Below, piece by piece: positions 7,471-20,138 of a stretch of 64,000 nt of DNA. The position numbers and the translations under genes are program-made. Every line of letters begins with the position of its first letter. Position 1 is the first letter of the stretch. The notes beneath the pieces are model-generated. The model was not told the DNA's origin, did no database searches, and saw only the letters and a list, made by a program, of their open reading frames with translations. Source of the DNA: an uncultured bacterium (GTDB lineage: Bacteria > Verrucomicrobiota > Verrucomicrobiia > Verrucomicrobiales > DEV007). The stretch lies in NCBI GenBank assembly GCA_963977015.1, contig CAXBMO010000007.1, positions 206,649 to 270,648 of the forward strand, in the 5' to 3' direction.

Positions 7471-7719
7471 GATGTTGGCGAAGATCGCTCCGTGACTCAT
7501 CCTGTCAATTTCCGAACTGAGGATCGTCCAATCCGAGCGACTTTCACCTCTTACCGCATTCCTCGTCGGTTCTGCCTGAAGTCCCTGATCACCGGTTCCA
7601 ATCAATGCGCTGAAGCTCTACGATTTGGCCGAATTCGCTTGGTGAATCGAGCAATTCTTCGCAGTTTGTGTCTGTAGACCTGGATTTGGTCCGTGTATTC
7701 TATGTTTTGGATTCCAATC

Positions 7720-10137
7720 ATGCGCTTTCGACTCTTTACCGCTCTTTTGATCGGCCTCGGCTCTGCTTCGGCCTTGGCGCAATCTTTTGATGAGCCCTTG
7801 ATCCCGTTTCTGGAGACCCACTGTTACGATTGCCACGACGACAGTCTGAAGAAGGGCGGTCTGGACCTGTTTGAGCTGGGTGTGGATTTGAGCGACGAAG
7901 CCGTTCAAGCGAAGTGGGTTCGCATTTATGATCGTGTGATGCGCGGCGAGATGCCGCCGGAGGATAAGAAGCAACCTACAGAGGAAGAACGTCGCGCCTT
8001 CAGCCGGCATTTGGCGATGCCCATCGCGAAGGCTCACGAGGAATCCAAGGGCACGGTTTTGCGGCGCCTGAACCGTGAAGAGTATGAAAATACGATGAAC
8101 GACCTGTTCGGCACGAAGCTGGAATTGGCGAAGATTTTGCCCGAAGACGCCCGCTCCCACGAGTTCTCGAATGTGGGTGAGTCGCTCAGCATCTCCATGG
8201 TGCAGATGGAGCGTTATCTTCAGGCCGTCGACCTGGTGTGGGAGGATTTTATCGTCGACGACATCAAAGGCCTGGAATCCAACGTGATCCGGGTCAGCTA
8301 TGCGGAAACCCGGGAGGCCGAGAAGTTCATCGGCACGAGCTGGCATCAGGCAAAAGATGGGGCGGTGGTCTTTTTTCGGCGAGTGGGATACCCGACCGGA
8401 ATGCTTCGTGGGTCGGGAGTTCGCGAACCCGGTCGCTACAAGATCCGCGTCACCGGGTATGCCTATCAATCGGAGAACCCCATCACCTTCTTCCTCGGCG
8501 GAACGACGTTTGCCCGAGGCGTTGAGAAGCCGACTTACGGCTACTATCAATTGAAGCCGGGCAAGCCGCAGACGATCGAAATTGAGACCACGATTCCTCA
8601 CAATTACATGGTTCAGATTGAGCCGGAAGGGATTTCGGTTTCCACTCCCGAACTGAAGAAGATCGGCATCGAAAACTACAAGGGGCCGGGCCTCGCCATC
8701 AACCATGTCGAGATTGAAGGCCCGCTGGTGGAGGAGTTTCCGAAACGCGGATACCGTCTCATTTTCGACGGCATTGATCGCCATGAAGTGATGCCGAACA
8801 ATCCCAAGGATCGGGAACGAAGCTATTATCGGCCGAAGTTTGACGTTACCTCGGAAGATCCAAGCCGCGACGCTGCGCAGTCGTTCAAACGCCTCGCGAC
8901 CGCGGCCTTTCGACGCCCGGTCCAGAACGCTGAACTAACGCCTTACCTTGACCTCTTCAATGCTGAAATGGAAAGTGGTTCCACTTTCGAAGAATCACTT
9001 CGGACGGGTGTAAAAGCCATTCTCTGTTCGCCCAATTTTCTCTTTCTGCGCGAGAAACCCGGCAAACTGGATGATTACGCGCTGGCGTCCCGGCTCTCCT
9101 ACTTTCTCAATCGCACGAGCCCGGATGCGGAGTTGTTGGCCGACGCCGATGCCCGCCTGTTGGCCGGCGATCCCAAACGGTTGCTGAAGCATGCCGACCG
9201 ATTGCTGGCGAAGCCTCATTCCGAGCGTTTCGTCATCGACTTTACCGATGCGTGGCTGGATTTGCGAAACATCGAGTTTACCGCGCCCGATCGAACTCTG
9301 TTTCCTGAGTTCGATCCGTTTCTGCAGTTTTCGATGCTGGCCGAATCCCGCGCGTTTTTCGAAGAATTGTTGGAGCAGAACCTGAGCGTTTCCAATCTCG
9401 TCAAATCCGACTTTGCCATGTTGAACAACCGGTTGGGTAGGCACTACGGAATTGAGGGAGTGAAGAGCCCATCGATTCAACGCGTGAGCTTGCCCGCCGA
9501 CAGTCCTCGTGGCGGCTTTCTCAGTCAGGGAAGCGTGCTGAAGGTTTCCGCCAATGGGACCAACACATCGCCTGTTGTTCGTGGAGTTTGGGTGATGGAA
9601 CGCATTCTGGGGAAGACGCCACCTCCTCCGCCACCGGGAATCCCGGGAGTGGAACCCGATATTCGGGGAGCCGAGACCTTGCGGGATTTGCTCGACAAGC
9701 ACCGAAATTCGGAAACCTGCCGGAGTTGTCACCAGATGATCGATCCGCCGGGTTTCGCGCTGGAAAGCTTCAATCCGATCGGTGGTTGGCGCGAGCAGTT
9801 TCGCAGCCTCAACAACAAGGACAAACGTCCTGAGATCATCGTCAACGGACAGAATGTTCGTTACCGCATCGGACCCGAAGTCGACTCAAGTGGTCAGCTT
9901 GCCGATGGAAGTGAGTTTGCCGGTTTCAATGAGTTCCGGACCTTGCTGGCTCAAGATCAATCCACCCTGGCCCGCGCCCTCGTAACCAAGTTCCTTATCT
10001 TTGCCACGGGCCGCGAAATGGGATTTTCGGACCGTCCTGAAATCAACCGGATCGTGAAGACCGCCGCCAAGCAGGGATACGGGGTCCGTGATCTCTTGCA
10101 TCTCGCGATTTCCAGCGACATTTTTCAAAACAAATAG
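7720..10137 (+). CDS. PVC-type DUF1592/DUF1588 (PSD/PSCyt) protein with heme-c motifs
   Basis: Signal peptide; CYDCH and CRSCH; LRRLNREEYENT, LASRLSYFL, TSPVVRGVW, IDPPGFALE. Confidence 0.9.
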   Translation: MRFRLFTALLIGLGSASALAQSFDEPLIPFLETHCYDCHDDSLKKGGLDLFELGVDLSDEAVQAKWVRIYDRVMRGEMPPEDKKQPTEEERRAFSRHLAMPIAKAHEESKGTVLRRLNREEYENTMNDLFGTKLELAKILPEDARSHEFSNVGESLSISMVQMERYLQAVDLVWEDFIVDDIKGLESNVIRVSYAETREAEKFIGTSWHQAKDGAVVFFRRVGYPTGMLRGSGVREPGRYKIRVTGYAYQSENPITFFLGGTTFARGVEKPTYGYYQLKPGKPQTIEIETTIPHNYMVQIEPEGISVSTPELKKIGIENYKGPGLAINHVEIEGPLVEEFPKRGYRLIFDGIDRHEVMPNNPKDRERSYYRPKFDVTSEDPSRDAAQSFKRLATAAFRRPVQNAELTPYLDLFNAEMESGSTFEESLRTGVKAILCSPNFLFLREKPGKLDDYALASRLSYFLNRTSPDAELLADADARLLAGDPKRLLKHADRLLAKPHSERFVIDFTDAWLDLRNIEFTAPDRTLFPEFDPFLQFSMLAESRAFFEELLEQNLSVSNLVKSDFAMLNNRLGRHYGIEGVKSPSIQRVSLPADSPRGGFLSQGSVLKVSANGTNTSPVVRGVWVMERILGKTPPPPPPGIPGVEPDIRGAETLRDLLDKHRNSETCRSCHQMIDPPGFALESFNPIGGWREQFRSLNNKDKRPEIIVNGQNVRYRIGPEVDSSGQLADGSEFAGFNEFRTLLAQDQSTLARALVTKFLIFATGREMGFSDRPEINRIVKTAAKQGYGVRDLLHLAISSDIFQNK

Positions 10138-10164
10138 CCCCTTCCACTCCGTCCACCTTTCGCC

Positions 10165-11463
10165 ATGAACAGCCCTCACCTCGCTACCGGTTCCCACCTG
10201 AGCCGACGCCACTTTCTCCGCGGAACCGGCGCAGCCGCCTTGAGCCTTCCGATTCTGGACGCCATGACTCCGGCGTTTGCCGCAACGGCCCCGGCAAAGT
10301 CGCCACCCCGATTTGTCGCGATGTGCGCCGGCCTCGGATTCCATACGCCTTACCTGTTTCCTGAGAAACCCGGCAAAGACTATCAGGACACCCCCTACCT
10401 GAGCCGCTTGAAGGCGCATCGCAATCAGATGACGATCTTGTCGGGATTTTCACATCCCGAACAACAGGGAAACAATGGACACGCATCCAGCCTGACGTGG
10501 TTGACCTCGGCAAAACGACCGGGGTTGGCAGGCTTCAAGAACAGCATCTCCCTTGATCAGCTGATTGCCAGCCAGATCGGGATTGAAACGCGATATCCCT
10601 ACCTCACGCTTTCTTCTGGGGGCAGTTCGCTTTCCTGGACCTCCAACGGGGTCGAGATTCCAGCCCAGAATTCTCCCGCCAATATTTTCAAGGCGCTTTT
10701 TATCGATGGGACGGAAGCAGAGATTGCCGCTGAGATGCGAAGCTTCCAACGGGGACGAAGCATTATGGATACCGTATTGGGAGAAGCGAAGAAGCTGCAC
10801 AATGAGCTGGGGCATCGCGACCAGGAGAAGCTTGACGAGTATCTGACTTCGGTTCGTGAGCTCGAACAACGCCTCCAGCAATCCGAGAACTGGTCCCAAC
10901 AGCCCAAGCCCAAAATTGACGCCGAACCGCCTACCGACATTAGTGATCGGAATGACATCATTGGGAAGCAACGGCTTCTGAATGACATGATCGTTCTGGC
11001 GCTGCAAACGGATTCGACAAGAACCGTGACGTTCCAATTGGGCAGTCTCAACTCACCGCCCAGCAATATCGAGGGAGTGAACACCGATTGGCACAACCTC
11101 TCACACCACGGCAAGGACGAAGCCAAGATCGAAGAATTGAAACTGATTGAGGAAGCGGAGTTTGATGTCTTCAACGAGTTCCTCACCAAGCTCTCCAGCA
11201 TCAACGAGAACGGCCAGACGCTCCTGGACCGCACATCGGTTCTGTATGGTTCGAATCTGGGGAATGCGAGCAGCCACAACTGGCGCAACCTTCCCTTGAT
11301 CCTCGCCGGTGGCGGATTCAACCACGGTTCCTACATCGCGCATGATCCTGACAACAATACGCCATTCGCCAACCTCCTGGTTCCGTTGGCGCAGCGCATG
11401 GGAGTCGAGATCGACCAGTTCGGGAGCAGCACCTCAGCGGGAATCGCGGAGTTGAGCGTGTGA
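10165..11463 (+). CDS. DUF1552-family Tat-exported protein
   Basis: SRRHFLRG Tat motif; SLDQLIA, DQEKLDEYLTSVRELE, LALQTDSTR, WHNLSHH, NLPLILAGG; usual partner of the DUF1592 gene. Confidence 0.9.
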   Translation: MNSPHLATGSHLSRRHFLRGTGAAALSLPILDAMTPAFAATAPAKSPPRFVAMCAGLGFHTPYLFPEKPGKDYQDTPYLSRLKAHRNQMTILSGFSHPEQQGNNGHASSLTWLTSAKRPGLAGFKNSISLDQLIASQIGIETRYPYLTLSSGGSSLSWTSNGVEIPAQNSPANIFKALFIDGTEAEIAAEMRSFQRGRSIMDTVLGEAKKLHNELGHRDQEKLDEYLTSVRELEQRLQQSENWSQQPKPKIDAEPPTDISDRNDIIGKQRLLNDMIVLALQTDSTRTVTFQLGSLNSPPSNIEGVNTDWHNLSHHGKDEAKIEELKLIEEAEFDVFNEFLTKLSSINENGQTLLDRTSVLYGSNLGNASSHNWRNLPLILAGGGFNHGSYIAHDPDNNTPFANLLVPLAQRMGVEIDQFGSSTSAGIAELSV

Positions 11464-12573: not shown

Positions 12574-15500
12574 CTAACGAACCTCCAGCAGCACCGGTTG
12601 GGTTTCCCCACGAACTTCGGGCTCATAGTATTGATACGCGACGCTGGCTGGGGCCTGCACCTTGACCGGGAACTTTGCCCGCAACTGATAGCGGAACTGC
12701 AATGGCTTTCCATCTCCCGGAATCGCATTAAAATAGAGTGTGACTTGGCGTCCCTTTGGCTCGAATCGTTGGATGGTGCCCTTCTTCAACAACGCCTGAA
12801 AGGAGGCTGCCTCGATTTCAAAACCTGGTGGGATTCCGAGGTCAACCAGCGTCATGGGTGCAAAACCCGGGCGGTTGTAACGCAGGGTCACGTCAACGTT
12901 GAGAAGATCGCGGCTCGCCAATTCCGTCGTTTCGTAATCGGTTTCGATCTCCAGGATTTGCTCGGTTTCGCCTTCCTCGTCCGCATGAGGTTCGTAGTGC
13001 ACCGCAACCAGCTGGTAGGCAAGGTTCGCCTCGCGATTGATGTTGAGAACGACTTCGTTGTCCCCGGCTTTCACGAACTCGGTCAGACTGACCAGGTGGA
13101 AAACATCTGCGTTTTCCTTCGTAATTTCGAGCGGATTGGTCACGTCTCCATTTGCCGAGATCTGAACCGTCACGGCGCCTTTGATCTTACCTGCTGAGCC
13201 GGCCCCCATCAGCAAGGCGCGCATCGCCTGGACCGTCGCCTGAGTTGAATGCCAGGTTCCGCCGCTGTCACGCTGGGAGATCAGCCAGGCCAGGGCTTTG
13301 TGCGCCGTTGAAATAGAAGCATTCGCGCGCATCATCGCCTGGGCAATCAAGGCCGTGGTTTCAATGTCGAAAGAGCCACCCCGGCCATAGGTCAATCCCT
13401 CCCCTTCCGCTTTCCAAAACACAACGCCGTCCTGCTCCTGCTTCATCGAATCCAACTGGCGAATCACCTCACGCGCCTCCGCATCTCTTCCCGCCGTGAC
13501 AAACGCGTTTGCGACCAACGCCAACGTGTAGGCGTCATTGACGCCGTCACTCTTCGCGGCCAGAAAGTCAAAGCTTGCATCCAGTTCCTTCCCGCCACCA
13601 GCTTCGGCAACGGCCCAGGCGATGTAAGCGGTGGAACGCAACGCCGCGTCTTCACGCGAGTTCTTGAAATTGTTGATCGCACCTTCAGCGATTCCACCCG
13701 TGGGAGGATCCCAGCTTCCATTATTCTGGCGCTGTTGCATGAGCCAGCTCCGCGTGCGCTCGATCACAGCTTGGTCGACTTCATAGACTTTGGCCATGTC
13801 CACGAACTCCATCAGGCCATACGCGGTCAGGATCGTGTGGGCCGGAGGATTTCCAAACCAATCAAATCCTCCTCCATTCACTTCGTAGGACAACAGTCGC
13901 TGATATCCCTGGGCAATAAAGTCCAAGGCCTTCATCTCCAATTCCGGCTTAGCCTGTTTCGTATCGCGAAGATAGTTCAACACCAGCACATTCGGATAGG
14001 TGGTCGATGAGGTTTGCTCGAAACAACCGTAGGGCATTCGGAAGATGGAGTCCATGCCCTCCACGACCTGGCTAAACGCTCCGGGATAGATCTTCACAAA
14101 GAGGTCACTGCCACCGGAAATCGCATTTGCCGGGATCTGGATGCTCTCCTGCGTTTCTGTTGTGAGCCTCCCATTCTTTACAAGCTCCATTCTCTCACCA
14201 TTCGGAACCACCCGAACCGTGCGTTCAACGGCATCGGCCAACTTTGATCCCTGCGCAAAGACCGTGAGGGAGTGACGTCCCGCTTCCAGCGCGCGAATGC
14301 GATAGCTCGACTGCATCACTCCACCTCCCGAAGCTTCGAGTGTTTTTTCCGGGACGTCAGATACCAACTCATACCAGTCTTCGGCTTGGGCCTTGAGCTG
14401 AATCGATTGCGGCTCTGAGAGATAATTGAAAATGGCGATCGGAATCGTAATTTCGTCGCCCTGGGTCAGTTCAGTCGGGAAATCGATATCGATGAAGAAA
14501 TCCTGGAATACACGAATTCCACGCTCAAACGAGCCGAGTGATCCGTCTCGCGACACCGCACTTCCTGACAATCGCCAGGTCGTGATCGAGTCGGCGAGCG
14601 CCAACTCCAACGAAGCCTTCCCATCAGCACCGGTTAGAAGCTGCGGTTGCCACAAGAGGGTCTCTGGGAAATGGCGGCGAATCCGGGGAGGTTCGGCTTC
14701 ACTGCCATCGTGACCATTTGGACCAAGTGAGCCAGCTTCGGACCTTCCAAAAGCGGCCTCGGCCACCATCATGTCACCATCAAATCGTTCCGCCTTTTCG
14801 ATGAAGACGTCCAATGCATTCTGGGTCCTCCCGCCGTCCGCAAACGCCCCCAACTTGGAGAAGACCGCCAGAAGAATTACCGGGATCAGGGTGAAGGCGG
14901 TATTTGCCACGAGGATTCCCAGCCTTTGCGGAAGGGTTTGCCAACCGCTCAAGGACTTTCGCAGGAATCCAATCAGCCCCGCCAGCAAAAAGAGAATCAC
15001 AAACGAAGCCAGGGTCAACCGCAGGAACGTCGATTCATGGATTGCAGAACGATTCGACTCATTGGCGACGACGAACCCCGTTACCATGAGCCCGGAAAGG
15101 CCATAGACAATCGGGATCAACACGACCATCTGGCGGAACAGCGAGAGGTGCCTGCTAGAATGCTTCAGCCTGCGGAGCTCCGCAGATTTGATTCCGAGCC
15201 ACACGGTTCCCGTGATCATCAACACTACCCAAATAACGAACGCCATGGGAGCGGATAGATAGCCGATCGCCCGGCCGATCAGCATCATCAGAATTGGAGG
15301 CGCCAGCGTCGCGGTCAGGATGATCCAGAAAAATTGGCGCATGCGTCGTTGAAATTCGATGAGGTGAAGTTCTTCGGACTCGCCCGGGCGGAAGCGCAAA
15401 CGCGACAGTCCGTAGCCCGCAAAGACCAGCGAACAAACGATCAACAAGCCAAAAGGAAAGGTTACCAACAACCGGAACAACTCATCAGCATTCTGGCGCT

Positions 15501-17652
15501 TGCGTTCCTGCAGTTTATTGCGGCGCTCTGCCTGGGAACTGCTCTCCGCAGAGATCGGTCCGCCGGGATCGGCAGCCGCGGCGAAGGCAATGACATTCGC
15601 TTCTTCGAGCTCAGGCGTCGGCGCCCCGGGATCCGGTATTGCCGTGAAGTCTGACGGAGGTTGAGCGACAAACTGCGCTCTCGGTTTGAGGATTTCTTCC
15701 TGGATCAGGAAATACATTTCTTCCAGTCCGGGGCGAGAGTCGTTCAGTGCAAAAACGGCCTCATCAACTGCGGCAAGACTCAGGGCGGCCTCGACAGGTG
15801 ATCCGTCCTTCGACGTGACCAGGAACTCGATCATTGCCTTCTCCGCGGGTCGATACGTTTCGGCGTCGAGCTTGGCCTGAACCTGGAGTTGGTCCGCGCG
15901 ATGCACCTGGATCAGCTTGGAATCCCGGGCGATGTCTCCGTTATCCAGAATTGCGTAGGCCTGCAGTTGAAGCGTCCCGGCAAGGTCGAGCGGGATATCG
16001 TAGGCATATTCTCCCATTCCGCGTTTCAACTCGATCGAGGACGTCGCCAAGGATCGACCATTTTTCACAACATCGAGGAACACACGTTTCGCTTTTGACG
16101 CAGAAAGCACCTTCAAGTTGGCAGTCTGCCCCTGTCGGTAAATCGCCCCATCAGTCCTAAGCAGGATCCCATCGACCTGCACGCCAACCGCAAGCTCCTT
16201 GGTCACCTTCACCTCGGCACCCCGATCCGAGCGGGCTGAAAGCGACAGCTTCAAGTTCGGTTTGTCAGGAGTCAGCTTCACCTTGCCAATTCCCAACTCA
16301 TTGGTTTCCACGCGAGACCCTCCTCCGGTGTAGATAACTGCTTTGGCAGGCGTCCCGTCCGGATAGGCCGCCACGATGTAGAGCGTATTCTCCACGTTTT
16401 GAACCAGTTCACCGCTTTCCGGGAAGACCTCGACGCGCAACGGCTGATTCGTCACCTTGACCTGAAGAGGATGTCTGCGGGTCTCACCGGTTGCATCGGT
16501 CACTTCGGCCGTGAACCGAACAAACGCGTCTCCCTGATTCAAGGACTGTCCAACGAAGGCATCTTTGAGAGCAATCTCCGTTTCGAATGATCCCTGATCA
16601 TTCGTCGTTCCTGTGACGGTTTGGAAGGTTCGAAACCGCTCGATAAACTCGTCTGAAACGATGCGGATCTTGCCTCCCGCAACCGGCTTTCCAAAGGTGT
16701 AGTCGGCATTCAACTCAAGCCGGACCTTGTCGCCCGGGGCATAGTAGCCGCGATCCGCCCGAAGACTGACCTTGAACTTGGGAAGCACATAGCGCTCGAC
16801 CTTCACCTCGCGCTCAGAGGTCGTGTCATCAATCGTGACCGCGATCGTATAGCTTCCTTCGTTGACCTGGTTCGCCAACTTGAAGTCCGCTGACGCGATG
16901 CCAAATTCGCTCGTGGCGATGAGCTTGCGGAACACCTTGTTCCCCTTTGCGTCCCTGACTTCAAAAGCCACCTCACGCGATGAGGCAGGTTTCAGGGAAT
17001 CGGCCTCCATCGAAAGCGCCCGCATGTGAATGATCTGGCCGGGCTGATAGAGCGGCTTGTCCGTGCTTAGCATGGTTCGAAAGGATCGCCGAACCGTGAT
17101 TGACTCCTCGGTGTTCGCCTTGCCGGATTTCCCGCGAACCTCGGCCACCAACTTATAAGCCCCTTCCTCGACCGTATTTCTGACTTCGGCGGAGAGATCC
17201 GCAATCCCGTTCTCATCGGTTCGCGCAGAGCCGAGACGCCGCGATGATCCATCATCCCCAATCATCATCACTCGGACCTTGGCATTCTCAACCGGCCGAC
17301 GAGTTTCCTCACTTCGCACGAAAACTCGCACCGGCGTGATTTGCCCGGGTTCAACTCTTGGCTGCGTCACCATCACCACCTGCGTTGGATCGGGTTGTGC
17401 CGTTTCCACGACCCAGGTCTTGCCACCAAGTCCGATTGCGAAGAGAAAGGCGATCAACGCCGCGACCTTCCAGAACCCGCCACTAAAGAGCCAGGGCCAA
17501 GCATTTTCGCTTTCACCGTCCTGCCCCCCGATTCGCCGCTTGACGGCAGCGATGAAGCCTTCGTCATCTCCCGGTCCGCCCTTGCGACCGTATTCCTTCA
17601 TCATGCCGTCCATTGCGGCATCTTTACTGTTTTCGTTAGGTTCTTCAGGCAT
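12574..17652 (-). CDS. Membrane-anchored alpha-2-macroglobulin-family protein with an internal multi-pass TM insert
   Basis: TDKPLYQPG, YVLPKFKV, AAVDEAVF, RRHFPETLLW, DSITTW; thioester motif PYGCFEQ (CFEQ at 14014-14025); YQRLL, WHSTQAT, YQYYEPE. Start placed at MPEEPNE, overlapping the sigma stop. Confidence 0.92.
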   Translation of the reverse strand: MPEEPNENSKDAAMDGMMKEYGRKGGPGDDEGFIAAVKRRIGGQDGESENAWPWLFSGGFWKVAALIAFLFAIGLGGKTWVVETAQPDPTQVVMVTQPRVEPGQITPVRVFVRSEETRRPVENAKVRVMMIGDDGSSRRLGSARTDENGIADLSAEVRNTVEEGAYKLVAEVRGKSGKANTEESITVRRSFRTMLSTDKPLYQPGQIIHMRALSMEADSLKPASSREVAFEVRDAKGNKVFRKLIATSEFGIASADFKLANQVNEGSYTIAVTIDDTTSEREVKVERYVLPKFKVSLRADRGYYAPGDKVRLELNADYTFGKPVAGGKIRIVSDEFIERFRTFQTVTGTTNDQGSFETEIALKDAFVGQSLNQGDAFVRFTAEVTDATGETRRHPLQVKVTNQPLRVEVFPESGELVQNVENTLYIVAAYPDGTPAKAVIYTGGGSRVETNELGIGKVKLTPDKPNLKLSLSARSDRGAEVKVTKELAVGVQVDGILLRTDGAIYRQGQTANLKVLSASKAKRVFLDVVKNGRSLATSSIELKRGMGEYAYDIPLDLAGTLQLQAYAILDNGDIARDSKLIQVHRADQLQVQAKLDAETYRPAEKAMIEFLVTSKDGSPVEAALSLAAVDEAVFALNDSRPGLEEMYFLIQEEILKPRAQFVAQPPSDFTAIPDPGAPTPELEEANVIAFAAAADPGGPISAESSSQAERRNKLQERKRQNADELFRLLVTFPFGLLIVCSLVFAGYGLSRLRFRPGESEELHLIEFQRRMRQFFWIILTATLAPPILMMLIGRAIGYLSAPMAFVIWVVLMITGTVWLGIKSAELRRLKHSSRHLSLFRQMVVLIPIVYGLSGLMVTGFVVANESNRSAIHESTFLRLTLASFVILFLLAGLIGFLRKSLSGWQTLPQRLGILVANTAFTLIPVILLAVFSKLGAFADGGRTQNALDVFIEKAERFDGDMMVAEAAFGRSEAGSLGPNGHDGSEAEPPRIRRHFPETLLWQPQLLTGADGKASLELALADSITTWRLSGSAVSRDGSLGSFERGIRVFQDFFIDIDFPTELTQGDEITIPIAIFNYLSEPQSIQLKAQAEDWYELVSDVPEKTLEASGGGVMQSSYRIRALEAGRHSLTVFAQGSKLADAVERTVRVVPNGERMELVKNGRLTTETQESIQIPANAISGGSDLFVKIYPGAFSQVVEGMDSIFRMPYGCFEQTSSTTYPNVLVLNYLRDTKQAKPELEMKALDFIAQGYQRLLSYEVNGGGFDWFGNPPAHTILTAYGLMEFVDMAKVYEVDQAVIERTRSWLMQQRQNNGSWDPPTGGIAEGAINNFKNSREDAALRSTAYIAWAVAEAGGGKELDASFDFLAAKSDGVNDAYTLALVANAFVTAGRDAEAREVIRQLDSMKQEQDGVVFWKAEGEGLTYGRGGSFDIETTALIAQAMMRANASISTAHKALAWLISQRDSGGTWHSTQATVQAMRALLMGAGSAGKIKGAVTVQISANGDVTNPLEITKENADVFHLVSLTEFVKAGDNEVVLNINREANLAYQLVAVHYEPHADEEGETEQILEIETDYETTELASRDLLNVDVTLRYNRPGFAPMTLVDLGIPPGFEIEAASFQALLKKGTIQRFEPKGRQVTLYFNAIPGDGKPLQFRYQLRAKFPVKVQAPASVAYQYYEPEVRGETQPVLLEVR

Positions 17653-18169
17653 GATTTTCCGATTGTTGGGTGATGCATTTGCCCAATTGGGCGCGAGCGC
17701 GTTGCAGTCGTTTCCGAATGGCGGCCTCGTCGGCATCCAGCCGTTTGGCCACCTCTACGCCACTCAGTTTTTGAAGATAAAATAGATCGACAGCCTTCCC
17801 CATTAATTCCGGCAACTTGCGAATGCAGCGATGCAAAACGGCGAACAGATCCGTGCCGGTTTCCGACTCTTGTTGATCCCAGGAACGATGCTGAGCTTCG
17901 ATCGCCTCCAGCATTTCCTCATCCATGCCGACCAGTTTCTGGGCGCGGGCCCATTCGCGAACTTTGTTCCGGACAATTCCTCGCATCCAACTGCCGAAAT
18001 CCCGGGTGACATCGAATTTTTCCAGGTTGGTCCAGGCAATGACAAAGGCGTCTTGAACCAGATCGCGCGCGGCATCGTTCCCACCGGTAATCGAGAAAGC
18101 GTAAGCCAAAAGCCGGCGATGATGCTGCCGAACGAGAATTTCAAAGGCTTTGGAGGGGTCTTGCGTCAC
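17645..18169 (-). CDS. ECF sigma-70 factor
   Basis: ARDLVQDAF, FGSWMRGIVRN (region 2); HTH EVAKRLD...IRKRLQRAR (region 4). Confidence 0.92.
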   Translation of the reverse strand: MTQDPSKAFEILVRQHHRRLLAYAFSITGGNDAARDLVQDAFVIAWTNLEKFDVTRDFGSWMRGIVRNKVREWARAQKLVGMDEEMLEAIEAQHRSWDQQESETGTDLFAVLHRCIRKLPELMGKAVDLFYLQKLSGVEVAKRLDADEAAIRKRLQRARAQLGKCITQQSENHA

Positions 18170-18306
18170 GAATTCTGGACTTGAGTTGAGAGTAGTTGAA
18201 AAAGAAACGGGATTTGTGACATGGAATCTGAGAAAATGACACGATCCAATCCATTCGGTGATTCTCTTGACTTAAGAGCCGACGATGAGACCGAACGAAA
18301 CCTAAT

Positions 18307-18960
18307 ATGACGAAACGCGTCCTGACCCAAGAAATCCTCGATCAACTTGAGCATGATCACCCGGATGCCTTGCGGAGCCGGGCGGACTTGATTCGGATCA
18401 ATGGAATTTTGGGGAACTTTCGTTGGCTGCGCAAAGCCCTGGAAGAACAAGGGGCTGCTGATGGATCCGCACACGTCGTAGAGATTGGCGCTGGTGACGG
18501 CCACTTTATCAGGAAGTTCGCCGCCGCTCACCCCAAGGTGAACTACACCGCGATCGACCTGGCTCCGAAGCCTCCGGAATGGCCCTCGAATTTGAATTGG
18601 AAGCAGGGCGATGCGTTGGATTGCCTTCCCGAAGTTGGAGGCGACATCTTGATCGCAAATCTCTTTCTTCACCATCTGACCGACGCGCAATTGGCAAAAC
18701 TCGGCGAAGGTTTGAGCGGCTATCGCGCCGTCATCTGCAATGAACCGGCTCGCTTCCGAGCCTTTCATGTTTTGGGAAAAGGCGTGCAACTGATCGGGGT
18801 CAATTACGTAACCCGTTTTGACATGCATGCGAGCATCAACGCCGGCTTCCGGCACACCGAACTGCCAACGGCTCTCGGACTGGAGCAAGCCGGTTGGCAC
18901 ATCGAAGCGTTTCATTCCATTTTTGGGATTTACCGAATGCTGGCCACTCAGGAGCGATGA
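18307..18960 (+). CDS. SAM-dependent methyltransferase of the type often linked to type III PKS
   Basis: EILD...DLIRIN, VEIGAGDG, ANLFLHH, TRFDMHASINAGF. Confidence 0.8.
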   Translation: MTKRVLTQEILDQLEHDHPDALRSRADLIRINGILGNFRWLRKALEEQGAADGSAHVVEIGAGDGHFIRKFAAAHPKVNYTAIDLAPKPPEWPSNLNWKQGDALDCLPEVGGDILIANLFLHHLTDAQLAKLGEGLSGYRAVICNEPARFRAFHVLGKGVQLIGVNYVTRFDMHASINAGFRHTELPTALGLEQAGWHIEAFHSIFGIYRMLATQER

Positions 18961-20138
18961 ATCGGTTTTTTGACGTTGTGATTGTGGGGGCCGGTCCCGC
19001 GGGGCTGGCCGCAGCCGCCTGCCTGGGCCGCCACGGCTTGAAAATCGCAATTCTCGATCGCCGCAGCCTCCCGATCGACAAACCTTGCGGCGAAGGGGTC
19101 ATGCCTCCCGGGGTGGCCATTTTGAAGAAATTGGGGGCAACCCCGTTTCTCAACCAATCCGATTTTCACCCGTTTCACGGGATCCGGTATCTCACCCCGA
19201 CCGGCAGGGTGGCGAAAGCTGACTTTGCCGAAGGCCCGGGACTCGGCATTCGCCGAACAAACCTCTCGCAGGCTCTCACGCATCTTCTGGATTCAATGCC
19301 AACCGTTGAGATCCACGAGAACACTCGCGTTCAAGGCATTGAGCAACACGAAAGCGGGGTTTCCATTCAATCGAACCGTGGCGATTTCGAGACACGCCTT
19401 TTGCTGGGAGCCGACGGGCTGCATTCCCGGGTTCGGAAATGGGCTGGGCTCGAAGGGAAAGCATCGCGGCATCGGCGACTCGGAATTCGCCGCCATTTCG
19501 AAGTTGAGCCCTGGAGCCGGTTTGTCGATGTCCACTCCGGTCCCGGCGTTGAGGCTTATGTGACGCCCTGTGGCCCGAATCAAGTCGGCATTGCCTGTCT
19601 ATGGGAGCGTGACACCTATCCGGACGCCGAGCCGGGAAAAGACTTGCTGGACTCGCTTCTGAAAGAGTTTCCTGACATTCAAAGAAAACTTGAGGGAGCC
19701 AAGCCCCTTTCGGAAACGCTTACAACGGGGCCACTGGAACAGAAGACTCGACGGCGCGTTTCCGACTCCATCATCCTCATCGGAGACGCCGCCGGTTACC
19801 TGGATGCCTGCACCGGAGAAGGAATTACTTTGGCACTGAAGCAAGCGCAGCTTCTGGAATCCCACCTCGTTCCGCTTCTCGCCGGTTCGAGGGGGTTGAT
19901 CCGGTCGAACCAGCTTCGCAACTATGAGGCGGCTTGTCGCAGGGTGTTGGCGTCCTACTATCTGGGAACACATTTCCTGTTGCTCCTGAATCGGCAGCCG
20001 CGGTTCATGGAGATCTTTGTTCGCGTATTGAGCCAACGCCCGGCGCTCTTGCAGCATCTTCTCTCCTTCAACATGGGGACGGTTCCACTGTGGCCAAGTC
20101 GGGCCTCTCTTCATCGCATTCTCGAATCCCATGCCTAA
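18957..20138 (+). CDS. NAD(P)/FAD-dependent oxidoreductase (geranylgeranyl reductase/monooxygenase-like)
   Basis: GAGPAG, DKPCGEG, GADGLHS, IGDAAGYLDACTGEGI; ATGA overlap with the methyltransferase. Confidence 0.88.
   Translation: MNRFFDVVIVGAGPAGLAAAACLGRHGLKIAILDRRSLPIDKPCGEGVMPPGVAILKKLGATPFLNQSDFHPFHGIRYLTPTGRVAKADFAEGPGLGIRRTNLSQALTHLLDSMPTVEIHENTRVQGIEQHESGVSIQSNRGDFETRLLLGADGLHSRVRKWAGLEGKASRHRRLGIRRHFEVEPWSRFVDVHSGPGVEAYVTPCGPNQVGIACLWERDTYPDAEPGKDLLDSLLKEFPDIQRKLEGAKPLSETLTTGPLEQKTRRRVSDSIILIGDAAGYLDACTGEGITLALKQAQLLESHLVPLLAGSRGLIRSNQLRNYEAACRRVLASYYLGTHFLLLLNRQPRFMEIFVRVLSQRPALLQHLLSFNMGTVPLWPSRASLHRILESHA

Follow-up and report, generated by a model that had tools for sequence, protein, structure and literature searches.

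In a 64,000-nucleotide (nt) stretch from an uncultured bacterium of the Verrucomicrobiota (lineage DEV007; GenBank assembly GCA_963977015.1, contig CAXBMO010000007.1, positions 206,649 to 270,648 of the forward strand; hereafter the window), a minus-strand gene encodes an alpha-2-macroglobulin (A2M)-like protein, P0002, that carries six hydrophobic segments at the position where such proteins hold their protease bait. The gene overlaps an upstream gene for an extracytoplasmic function (ECF) sigma factor. Both the architecture and the genetic coupling to an ECF sigma gene recur in other assemblies. We lean, by a narrow measure, towards the view that its product is a thioester protease trap threaded through the membrane and, at the same time, the anti-sigma partner of the upstream sigma factor. 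Three elements of this view, namely the topology of the chain, the fold of the six-helix bundle and the binding of the N-terminal tail to the sigma factor, have their support from prediction only.

Architecture and distribution of P0002

Profile matches assign P0002, a protein of the CD109/A2M/TEP type, to the A2M/thioester-containing protein (TEP) superfamily. The Pfam domains follow one another in the canonical order, MG2 (E = 2e-30), MG3, A2M_BRD (residues 526-664; E = 3.4e-11), A2M (1026-1115; E = 1.8e-21), TED_complement (1221-1508; E = 3.5e-48) and A2M_recep (1628-1711; E = 4.6e-12), as counted in the longest minus-strand open reading frame (ORF; 12574..17736, 1720 amino acids (aa)). The real start of the protein is most likely the ATG at 17652, giving 1692 aa, because the public gene call uses this codon and its methionine is invariant in an alignment of 21 full-length homologues. 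Residue numbers for the tail, anchor, linkers and helices (Table 1) are counted from this ATG, and Pfam positions from the 1720-aa reading. An earlier reading of the window made without database searches (the sequence-only reading) had reported an A2M with an intact CFEQ motif, and this motif is found at 14014-14025, within the thioester sequence GCFEQ. Column conservation averages 0.74-0.76 in the MG and TED parts of the protein (0.74 in the MG part up to A2M_BRD). NCBIfam profiles run on the whole of P0002 returned only a sub-threshold hopene-cyclase match, located in the TED. As a protein of this superfamily, P0002 may form a thioester and capture proteases covalently.

The sequence-only reading had further described six hydrophobic segments between AAVDEAVF (15751-15774) and RIRRHFPETLLW (14650-14685), at the bait position. 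All of the strings that it quoted are present, and Pfam A2M_BRD and A2M flank the six segments, which occupy the bait interval at residues 756-959 of the 1720-aa reading (window 15406-15471, 15277-15333, 15190-15246, 15064-15129, 14962-15018 and 14860-14922) and reach peaks of 2.1-2.6 in 19-residue Kyte-Doolittle means. In the alignment to solved CD109, RIRRHFPETLLW pairs with the CD109 segment RKHFPETWIW, and Foldseek matches a 623-residue model over the insert to C5, CD109 and A2M in alignments that take in the MG domain on either side. At a hydropathy threshold of 1.5, the insert shows six peaks in 17 of the 21 full-length homologues and five in the other 4; a six-segment architecture of this kind is far beyond chance. 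Given an alignment of 43 bundles, AlphaFold2 predicts six long helices with a mean predicted local distance difference test score (pLDDT) of 91.5 and a predicted template modelling score (pTM) of 0.86, and the helices score pLDDT 90-98 in the larger 623-residue model. A further hydropathy peak near the N-terminus, corresponding to a putative anchor helix (TM0), was detected in 20/21 aligned homologues.

The loops that connect the six helices alternate in charge. Median counts of lysine plus arginine in the window's clade are 7, 5 and 4 for loops ab, cd and ef, respectively, vs 1 for both bc and de, and the same alternation is seen across 47 six-helix loci. Because this is the pattern expected from the positive-inside rule, both macroglobulin halves are likely to be periplasmic and the N-terminal tail cytoplasmic, which agrees with the earlier suggestion that an even number of membrane segments returns the chain to the side from which it came.

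Two linkers flank the helices. Linker 1 is moderately conserved and constant in length within the clade (63-68 residues), and in model 1 of the 623-aa fragment its pLDDT falls below 50 at fragment residues 143-149, 157-169, 171-175 and 197-208. Linker 2 is the least conserved part of P0002 (mean 0.27) and the most variable in length (35-79 residues), with a median of 11 aspartate plus glutamate residues and pLDDT below 50 (residues 445-497 of the same fragment). Because this hypervariable, acidic and disordered profile resembles that of bait regions, the bait is probably still present, with the helices inserted beside it rather than replacing it and with linker 2 as the most bait-like element. 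The sequence-only reading placed the insert correctly, but replacement of the flexible bait is not supported, given that two disordered linkers persist and one of them is hypervariable.

Homologues with the same insert, for which the sequence-only reading had proposed a search, were found in number. When the 361-residue insert was used by itself as query, a word-indexed search retrieved 26 proteins from 7016 candidates at 27-100% identity, almost all of them about 1650-1730 aa long and with the same Pfam set; the few that carry a name come from Verrucomicrobiota, Planctomycetales and Phycisphaerae and bear no more specific label than 'alpha-2-macroglobulin family' or 'MG2 domain-containing'. 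Run exhaustively over 1.84 billion cluster representatives, phmmer gave 42 matches at E <= 0.001, consisting of long macroglobulins or short pieces, with no convincing free-standing full-length six-helix form among them. Genome and metagenome collections yielded 160 related loci, with 109 distinct sequences that could be scored: helices are present at the bait position in 57 and absent from it in 52. Six helices were counted in 47 of the 57 helix-bearing loci, two in 6 and four in 2, with one locus each scored as five and nine, and the two-, four- and six-helix forms all keep helices directly next to the variable linker. The family is widespread, with members in Verrucomicrobiota, Planctomycetota, Chloroflexota (Anaerolineales), Myxococcota and candidate phyla. 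In an unrooted FastTree tree built on MG2-MG6 with the insert excluded, a single change suffices between helix-bearing and helix-free sequences, as one origin of the insert would predict, but the branch concerned has weak support (62). Closer to the window, a survey of 41 related genomes found a full-length or near full-length orthologue in 4/4 genomes of the window's genus (in G003, 59% complete, it is split over contigs), in 1/21 other genomes of the family and in 0/16 from other families of the order; other matches in these genomes are ordinary macroglobulin paralogues of 1700-2700 aa.

Some relatives carry inserts of other sizes. Bait-position inserts of ~650 residues with roughly 9-12 hydrophobic segments occur in L027 and L028 and may represent a doubled bundle. 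In the two-helix variants of L143 and L058, the second helix closes with a LLPAVQAARE.ARR...NLKQ-type segment, which may resemble the N-terminal, prepilin-like helix of DUF1559 proteins from planctomycetes.

Coupling to an ECF sigma factor

Directly 5' of P0002 stands the sigma gene (Sigma70_r2, E = 6.4e-16; Sigma70_r4_2, E = 5.9e-10; Sigma70_ECF, E = 1.5e-4), and the ATG of P0002 shares 8 nt with the sigma stop (ATGCCTGA). The putative operon comprises these two genes, sigma factor and macroglobulin, because the next gene 5' of sigma is a divergent methyltransferase gene (18307-18960, plus strand; Methyltransf_12, E = 2.2e-8) and the genes below 12574 are convergent to P0002. The sequence-only reading had overlooked both the N-terminal anchor helix and the sigma gene, and translational coupling to the sigma factor changes the most likely role of the membrane module.

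The coupling extends to relatives. Among loci with 700 nt or more of sequence 5' of the macroglobulin gene, 18/50 helix-bearing vs 0/47 helix-free ones have an ECF sigma gene as the immediate upstream neighbour. Of the 20 sigma-neighbouring loci listed, 11 show a 4-nt and 3 an 8-nt overlap of sigma and macroglobulin genes; the two genes are separated by 4-39 nt in 5 and by ~650 nt in 1. A 4-nt overlap of sigma stop and macroglobulin start, ATGA, is the commonest spacing in relatives, and 13 sigma-neighbouring relatives besides the window locus overlap by 4 or 8 nt. Among close genomes with a full-length or near full-length macroglobulin copy, G003 and G010 have sigma genes (products 80 and 58% identical, respectively) that adjoin the macroglobulin gene, as in the window's own genome (G000). 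In G001 the sigma factor (76% identical) is encoded on another contig beside the same methyltransferase gene, and the macroglobulin keeps the tail motif. No sigma orthologue was found in G002 (92% complete; best match 30% identity), where the macroglobulin has its tail motif deleted and its anchor and six helices kept. Moreover, the predicted cytoplasmic loops have median lengths of 32, 21 and 21 residues in sigma-linked proteins vs 12, 11 and 16.5 otherwise. As a separate observation, two 5'-truncated relatives have an ECF sigma gene directly downstream of the macroglobulin gene (L107:3271-3987 and L108:2949-3587), which may belong to the following operon.

At its N-terminus P0002 has a tail of 54 residues and then a hydropathy peak, matching the layout of anti-sigma factors if the topology proposed above is correct. 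The tails of relatives are recognisable as anti-sigma domains: zf-HC2 scored above the Pfam cut-off in 8/10 of their N-terminal tails scanned and in 2/5 of their full proteins scanned (P0027 and P0046), and sub-threshold NCBIfam matches to 'anti-sigma factor' were obtained for the tails of 2/8 relatives. The predicted complex of the sigma factor with tail residues 1-56 reached interface scores (ipSAE) of 0.88, 0.87 and 0.88, the best of three controls scoring 0.00; the runs had 78% or more of their contacts in common, with a partner pLDDT of 66 or higher. This mark was reached by 58/80 solved complexes and 2/110 mismatched pairs, a calibration that applies only roughly because the prediction was run on alignments made for this analysis. 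Tail residues 5-24 and 30-41 contact both sigma region 2 and region 4 in the model, which places the window tail between these two regions. The prediction supports, at the level of a model, binding of the tail to its own sigma factor.

Proposed mechanism and rival explanations

In the reading of P0002 as both trap and anti-sigma factor, hydropathy and charge would place its 54-residue tail in the cytoplasm, followed by one anchor helix and by MG1-MG6 in the periplasm; at the bait position the chain would cross the inner membrane six times, so that MG7, CUB, the thioester domain and the C-terminal domain would again be periplasmic. The two flexible linkers flanking the bundle would lie at the membrane surface, usable as bait. 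In the resting state the tail would hold the sigma factor between regions 2 and 4, possibly aided by the bundle's long, arginine-rich loops on the cytoplasmic side. On entering the periplasm, a protease would cleave one of the linkers at the membrane surface, whereupon the macroglobulin body would rearrange and the thioester would capture the protease there. Either this rearrangement or the presence of new helix ends beside the anchor could be relayed to the anchor, loops and tail, leading to loss of the anti-sigma function, and the freed sigma factor would switch on at least its own operon, replacing a trap that can be used only once.

A more specific proposal, which is tentative and to our minds rather unlikely as it stands, is that of an envelope alarm, in which the extracytoplasmic sensor of the anti-sigma factor would be a suicide protease trap that passes through the membrane at its bait. 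A foreign protease would itself make the site-1-like cut in the bait, and the trap would capture it covalently and simultaneously free the ECF sigma factor. If this were true, the freed sigma factor would re-make the consumed trap and perhaps other defences, and bacteria would sense protease attack directly through a complement-like molecule. A2Ms and complement-like thioester proteins are generally seen as traps that are soluble or tethered to a surface; in P0002 the chain appears to re-enter the membrane at the bait and to have a putative sigma-binding tail in the cytoplasm. Such an arrangement would connect two well-studied fields, thioester-protein innate defence and ECF sigma signalling, and would offer a testable answer to how bacteria detect hostile proteases in the envelope. 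Furthermore, the two-, four- and six-helix forms with and without sigma genes make up a natural series in which the contribution of the membrane module could be dissected.

Several points weigh against the reading as trap and anti-sigma factor. Searches of the window tail against Pfam and NCBIfam matched no anti-sigma profile (zf-HC2 or related) and no other family, though P0002 is probably an ECF anti-sigma factor despite failing this profile test. The score of the sigma-tail complex may be inflated by likeness to solved sigma/anti-sigma complexes. In a clade of 31 loci (Anaerolineales-type), six helices are combined with a short N-terminus and no sigma gene; the bundle therefore needs no sigma partner, and in such sigma-less relatives, and perhaps originally, it is best read as a mid-chain membrane anchor only. 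The relay of a signal from bait cut to sigma release is a step that we infer. The tail stays tethered via the anchor helix to ~560 periplasmic residues, and a classical site-2 protease requires that the helix which it cuts carry only a short stub on the periplasmic side. Finally, the motif CATGTCACA-N14-TTCAAC, which sits 26 nt 5' of the sigma start, may be an autoregulated promoter, but this assignment draws on two related sequences only. In the 6.9-Mb genome its long pattern has 1 match, a shortened pattern 2 and a reversed control 0, and pairwise k-mer enumeration gave nothing convincing as an ECF-type promoter common to 17 sigma-upstream regions.

The 31-locus clade speaks at the same time for an explanation that we regard as rather unlikely, namely that the six helices and TM0 simply hold both halves of a periplasmic trap at the inner membrane, keeping them tethered once the bait is cut, with the sigma factor only driving transcription of the operon and the tail having no regulatory role. 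A bundle in which the TMf proline is the single near-invariant residue would suit a passive structural module, and membrane tethering by other means is seen in E. coli YfhM, a lipoprotein in its PDB entries, and in CD109, which carries a glycosylphosphatidylinositol anchor. An N-terminal anchor is already present in P0002, however, and six more helices would be costly for tethering; moreover, the 4- and 8-nt coupling, the zf-HC2 tails, the predicted complex and the joint loss of sigma factor and tail motif in G002 point to regulation. The trap or the signal might also be fired from within, were the bundle to present the trap to one of the cell's own membrane-embedded or membrane-proximal proteases, such as a site-1/site-2 or rhomboid-type enzyme; the sequence-only reading had suggested a trigger of this sort, or else a mechanical coupling of the trap to a membrane module. 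Regulated intramembrane proteolysis is a common means of controlling anti-sigma factors, both linkers are predicted to emerge at the membrane surface, and the adjacency of helices and variable linker in forms with two, four and six helices would fit such a trigger. Nevertheless, we find it improbable: a scan of ten neighbouring ORFs revealed no protease gene in or beside the operon, the helices have no conserved helix-breaking or recognition motif except for one proline, and the hypervariable acidic linker 2 resembles a broad-spectrum bait rather than a specific site.

The confident prediction of a compact bundle of six helices would be compatible with an autonomous channel, transporter or enzyme fused into the macroglobulin, and the GLSG in the window's fourth helix resembles the rhomboid serine motif. 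A rhomboid-like protease was considered on the strength of this GLSG and rejected, as neither that serine nor any other polar residue is kept across the 43 bundles. Sequence conservation in the bundle is low overall; one proline in TMf alone is near-invariant and no polar residue or motif is conserved across the 43 bundles, which argues against a role as enzyme or transporter. Together with the absence of a free-standing full-length family member from the phmmer matches, this makes an autonomous module very improbable. Among PDB structures, Foldseek found nothing for the bundle at E <= 0.001 (the best match was APH-1, E = 0.17), a wide VIA-align search returned only generic helical bundles (Z <= 9.8, below the chance level of ~13 for helical models), and an ESM Atlas search gave no usable match. 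A missing match in Foldseek or VIA-align does not show that the bundle fold is new. A chimeric assembly or mis-joined contig, which the sequence-only reading had wished to see excluded, is refuted, with a probability close to nil: dozens of independent assemblies, which represent several phyla, show this architecture, and two studies provide, in four public runs, short contigs that span the linker 1/TMa, TMf/linker 2 and sigma/A2M junctions without joints.

Neighbouring features and known systems

Besides the operon, a minus-strand ORF can be read at 18166-19050 (294 aa), which is probably spurious because the plus-strand methyltransferase gene overlaps it and it has no family match. Elsewhere in the window, positions 7693-11463 (plus strand) hold a gene pair typical of Planctomycetota-Verrucomicrobiota. 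Its first gene encodes an 814-aa protein with PSCyt1, PSD2-5 and PSCyt3 (DUF1585-1595) domains, and its second a DUF1552 protein with a weak twin-arginine translocation (Tat) signal match below the cut-off.

Some relatives of P0002 have an in-frame TGA in place of the thioester cysteine codon (G-TGA-F/M-E-Q). This was observed at 33 places in related loci (L019:4102, L020:7349, L031:7565, L065:7331, L085:7373 and 28 places in L089-L171), and never as TAA or TAG in homologous context. A hairpin starts ~13 nt 3' of the TGA, and 31 TGA sequences fold with a mean energy of -16.0 kcal/mol vs -11.4 kcal/mol for 121 cysteine sequences, a contrast inflated by relatedness. Two complete genomes with TGA genes were tested, and both have selA, a TGA-containing selD and tRNA-Sec, with selB over the cut-off in 1/2. 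The TGA at the thioester site is thus probably a selenocysteine codon. The window's own macroglobulin gene has cysteine at this site. Because G000 encodes selB, selA, a TGA-containing selD and tRNA-Sec, it can make selenoproteins, although its own macroglobulin uses cysteine.

Table 1. Coordinates of features discussed in the text. Positions are those of the window, except where a contig of G000 (C1, C5 or C7) is named.
Feature	Coordinates	Strand	Basis
A2M/TEP-family thioester protein P0002, 1692 aa	12574..17652	(-)	Pfam set, public gene call
Predicted cytoplasmic N-terminal tail, residues 1-54, candidate sigma-binding segment	17491..17652	(-)	Conserved in clade; complex prediction
Putative N-terminal membrane anchor helix TM0, residues 55-77	17422..17490	(-)	Hydropathy peak 1.9
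MG domains to end of A2M_BRD, predicted periplasmic	15751..17421	(-)	Pfam MG2, MG3, A2M_BRD
Linker 1, residues 635-727: conserved helices, disordered stretches, charged helix into TMa	15472..15750	(-)	Model, alignment
Predicted six-helix membrane domain TMa-TMf, residues 728-931	14860..15471	(-)	Hydropathy; model pLDDT 91.5, pTM 0.86
Linker 2, residues 932-989: acidic, disordered, hypervariable	14686..14859	(-)	Conservation, pLDDT <50
C-terminal half: Pfam A2M (MG7 region), TED with thioester, receptor-binding-like domain	12577..14685	(-)	Pfam; CD109 alignment
Thioester motif GCFEQ	14014..14028	(-)	Invariant in 21/21 aligned homologues
ECF sigma factor gene, 174 aa, GTG start	17645..18169	(-)	Pfam Sigma70_r2 / Sigma70_r4_2 / Sigma70_ECF
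Candidate promoter-like motif CATGTCACA-N14-TTCAAC	18195..18223	(-)	Low confidence; common to orthologous locus L004
selB of G000	C7:163997-165907 (~41 kb before window start)		
selA of G000	C1:42944-44299		
TGA-containing selD of G000	C5:255715-256644		
tRNA-Sec of G000	C5:263260-263354		

Among the papers listed in full-text searches we found none on a macroglobulin with a membrane-spanning bait or with a role as anti-sigma factor (the supplementary tables of ECF classifications, which could include such a domain, lay outside this search), and the statement of the sequence-only reading that no A2M of this architecture had been described is borne out to that extent. The best sequence matches among solved structures are CD109, A2M, A2ML1 and TEP1 (E = 7.2e-77, 3.1e-68, 1.1e-54 and 5.8e-50, respectively). 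They share with P0002 the domain order, the thioester motif and a segment of the RKHFPETWIW type straight after the bait, and the C-terminal half of P0002 aligns with CD109 residues 695-1409. In contrast to P0002, these proteins are without in-chain membrane helices, cytoplasmic tail or sigma link, and a soluble loop serves as their bait.

Type I bacterial A2Ms such as ECAM/YfhM and Salmonella A2M are likewise bacterial thioester-bearing protease traps, and their structures are among the Foldseek matches (5a42, 4ziq and 4u48). Type I bacterial A2Ms are periplasmic, attached to the inner membrane and usually paired with PBP1c. ECAM/YfhM is distant from P0002 in sequence (E = 1.2e-12, over residues 1005-1317 only). 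P0002 differs further in having no lipobox cysteine of the ECAM type, as neither its tail nor its anchor helix contains a cysteine that could serve as one, and no PBP1c-like neighbour or other penicillin-binding protein among the ten neighbouring ORFs scanned.

The ECF anti-sigma factors RseA, RsiW and those of the ChrR type resemble P0002 in that their genes overlap an upstream ECF sigma gene and in the succession of a cytoplasmic N-terminus, one helix and an extracytoplasmic domain, as predicted here. They differ from it in the nature of the sensor, which in P0002 would be a thioester macroglobulin of ~1600 residues that re-enters the membrane six times. Unlike zf-HC2 anti-sigma factors, P0002 has a short tail without an anti-sigma profile match; its relatives do carry zf-HC2. 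Complement C3, C4 and C5 offer a parallel for the insert itself, having an extra helical domain between the two halves of MG6 at the site of activation and cleavage, and the 623-residue model finds its best Foldseek matches in C5 structures. Cleavage sets free the anaphylatoxin domain, which is a soluble bundle of four helices and small in size, whereas the helices inserted in P0002 are hydrophobic and predicted to span the membrane.

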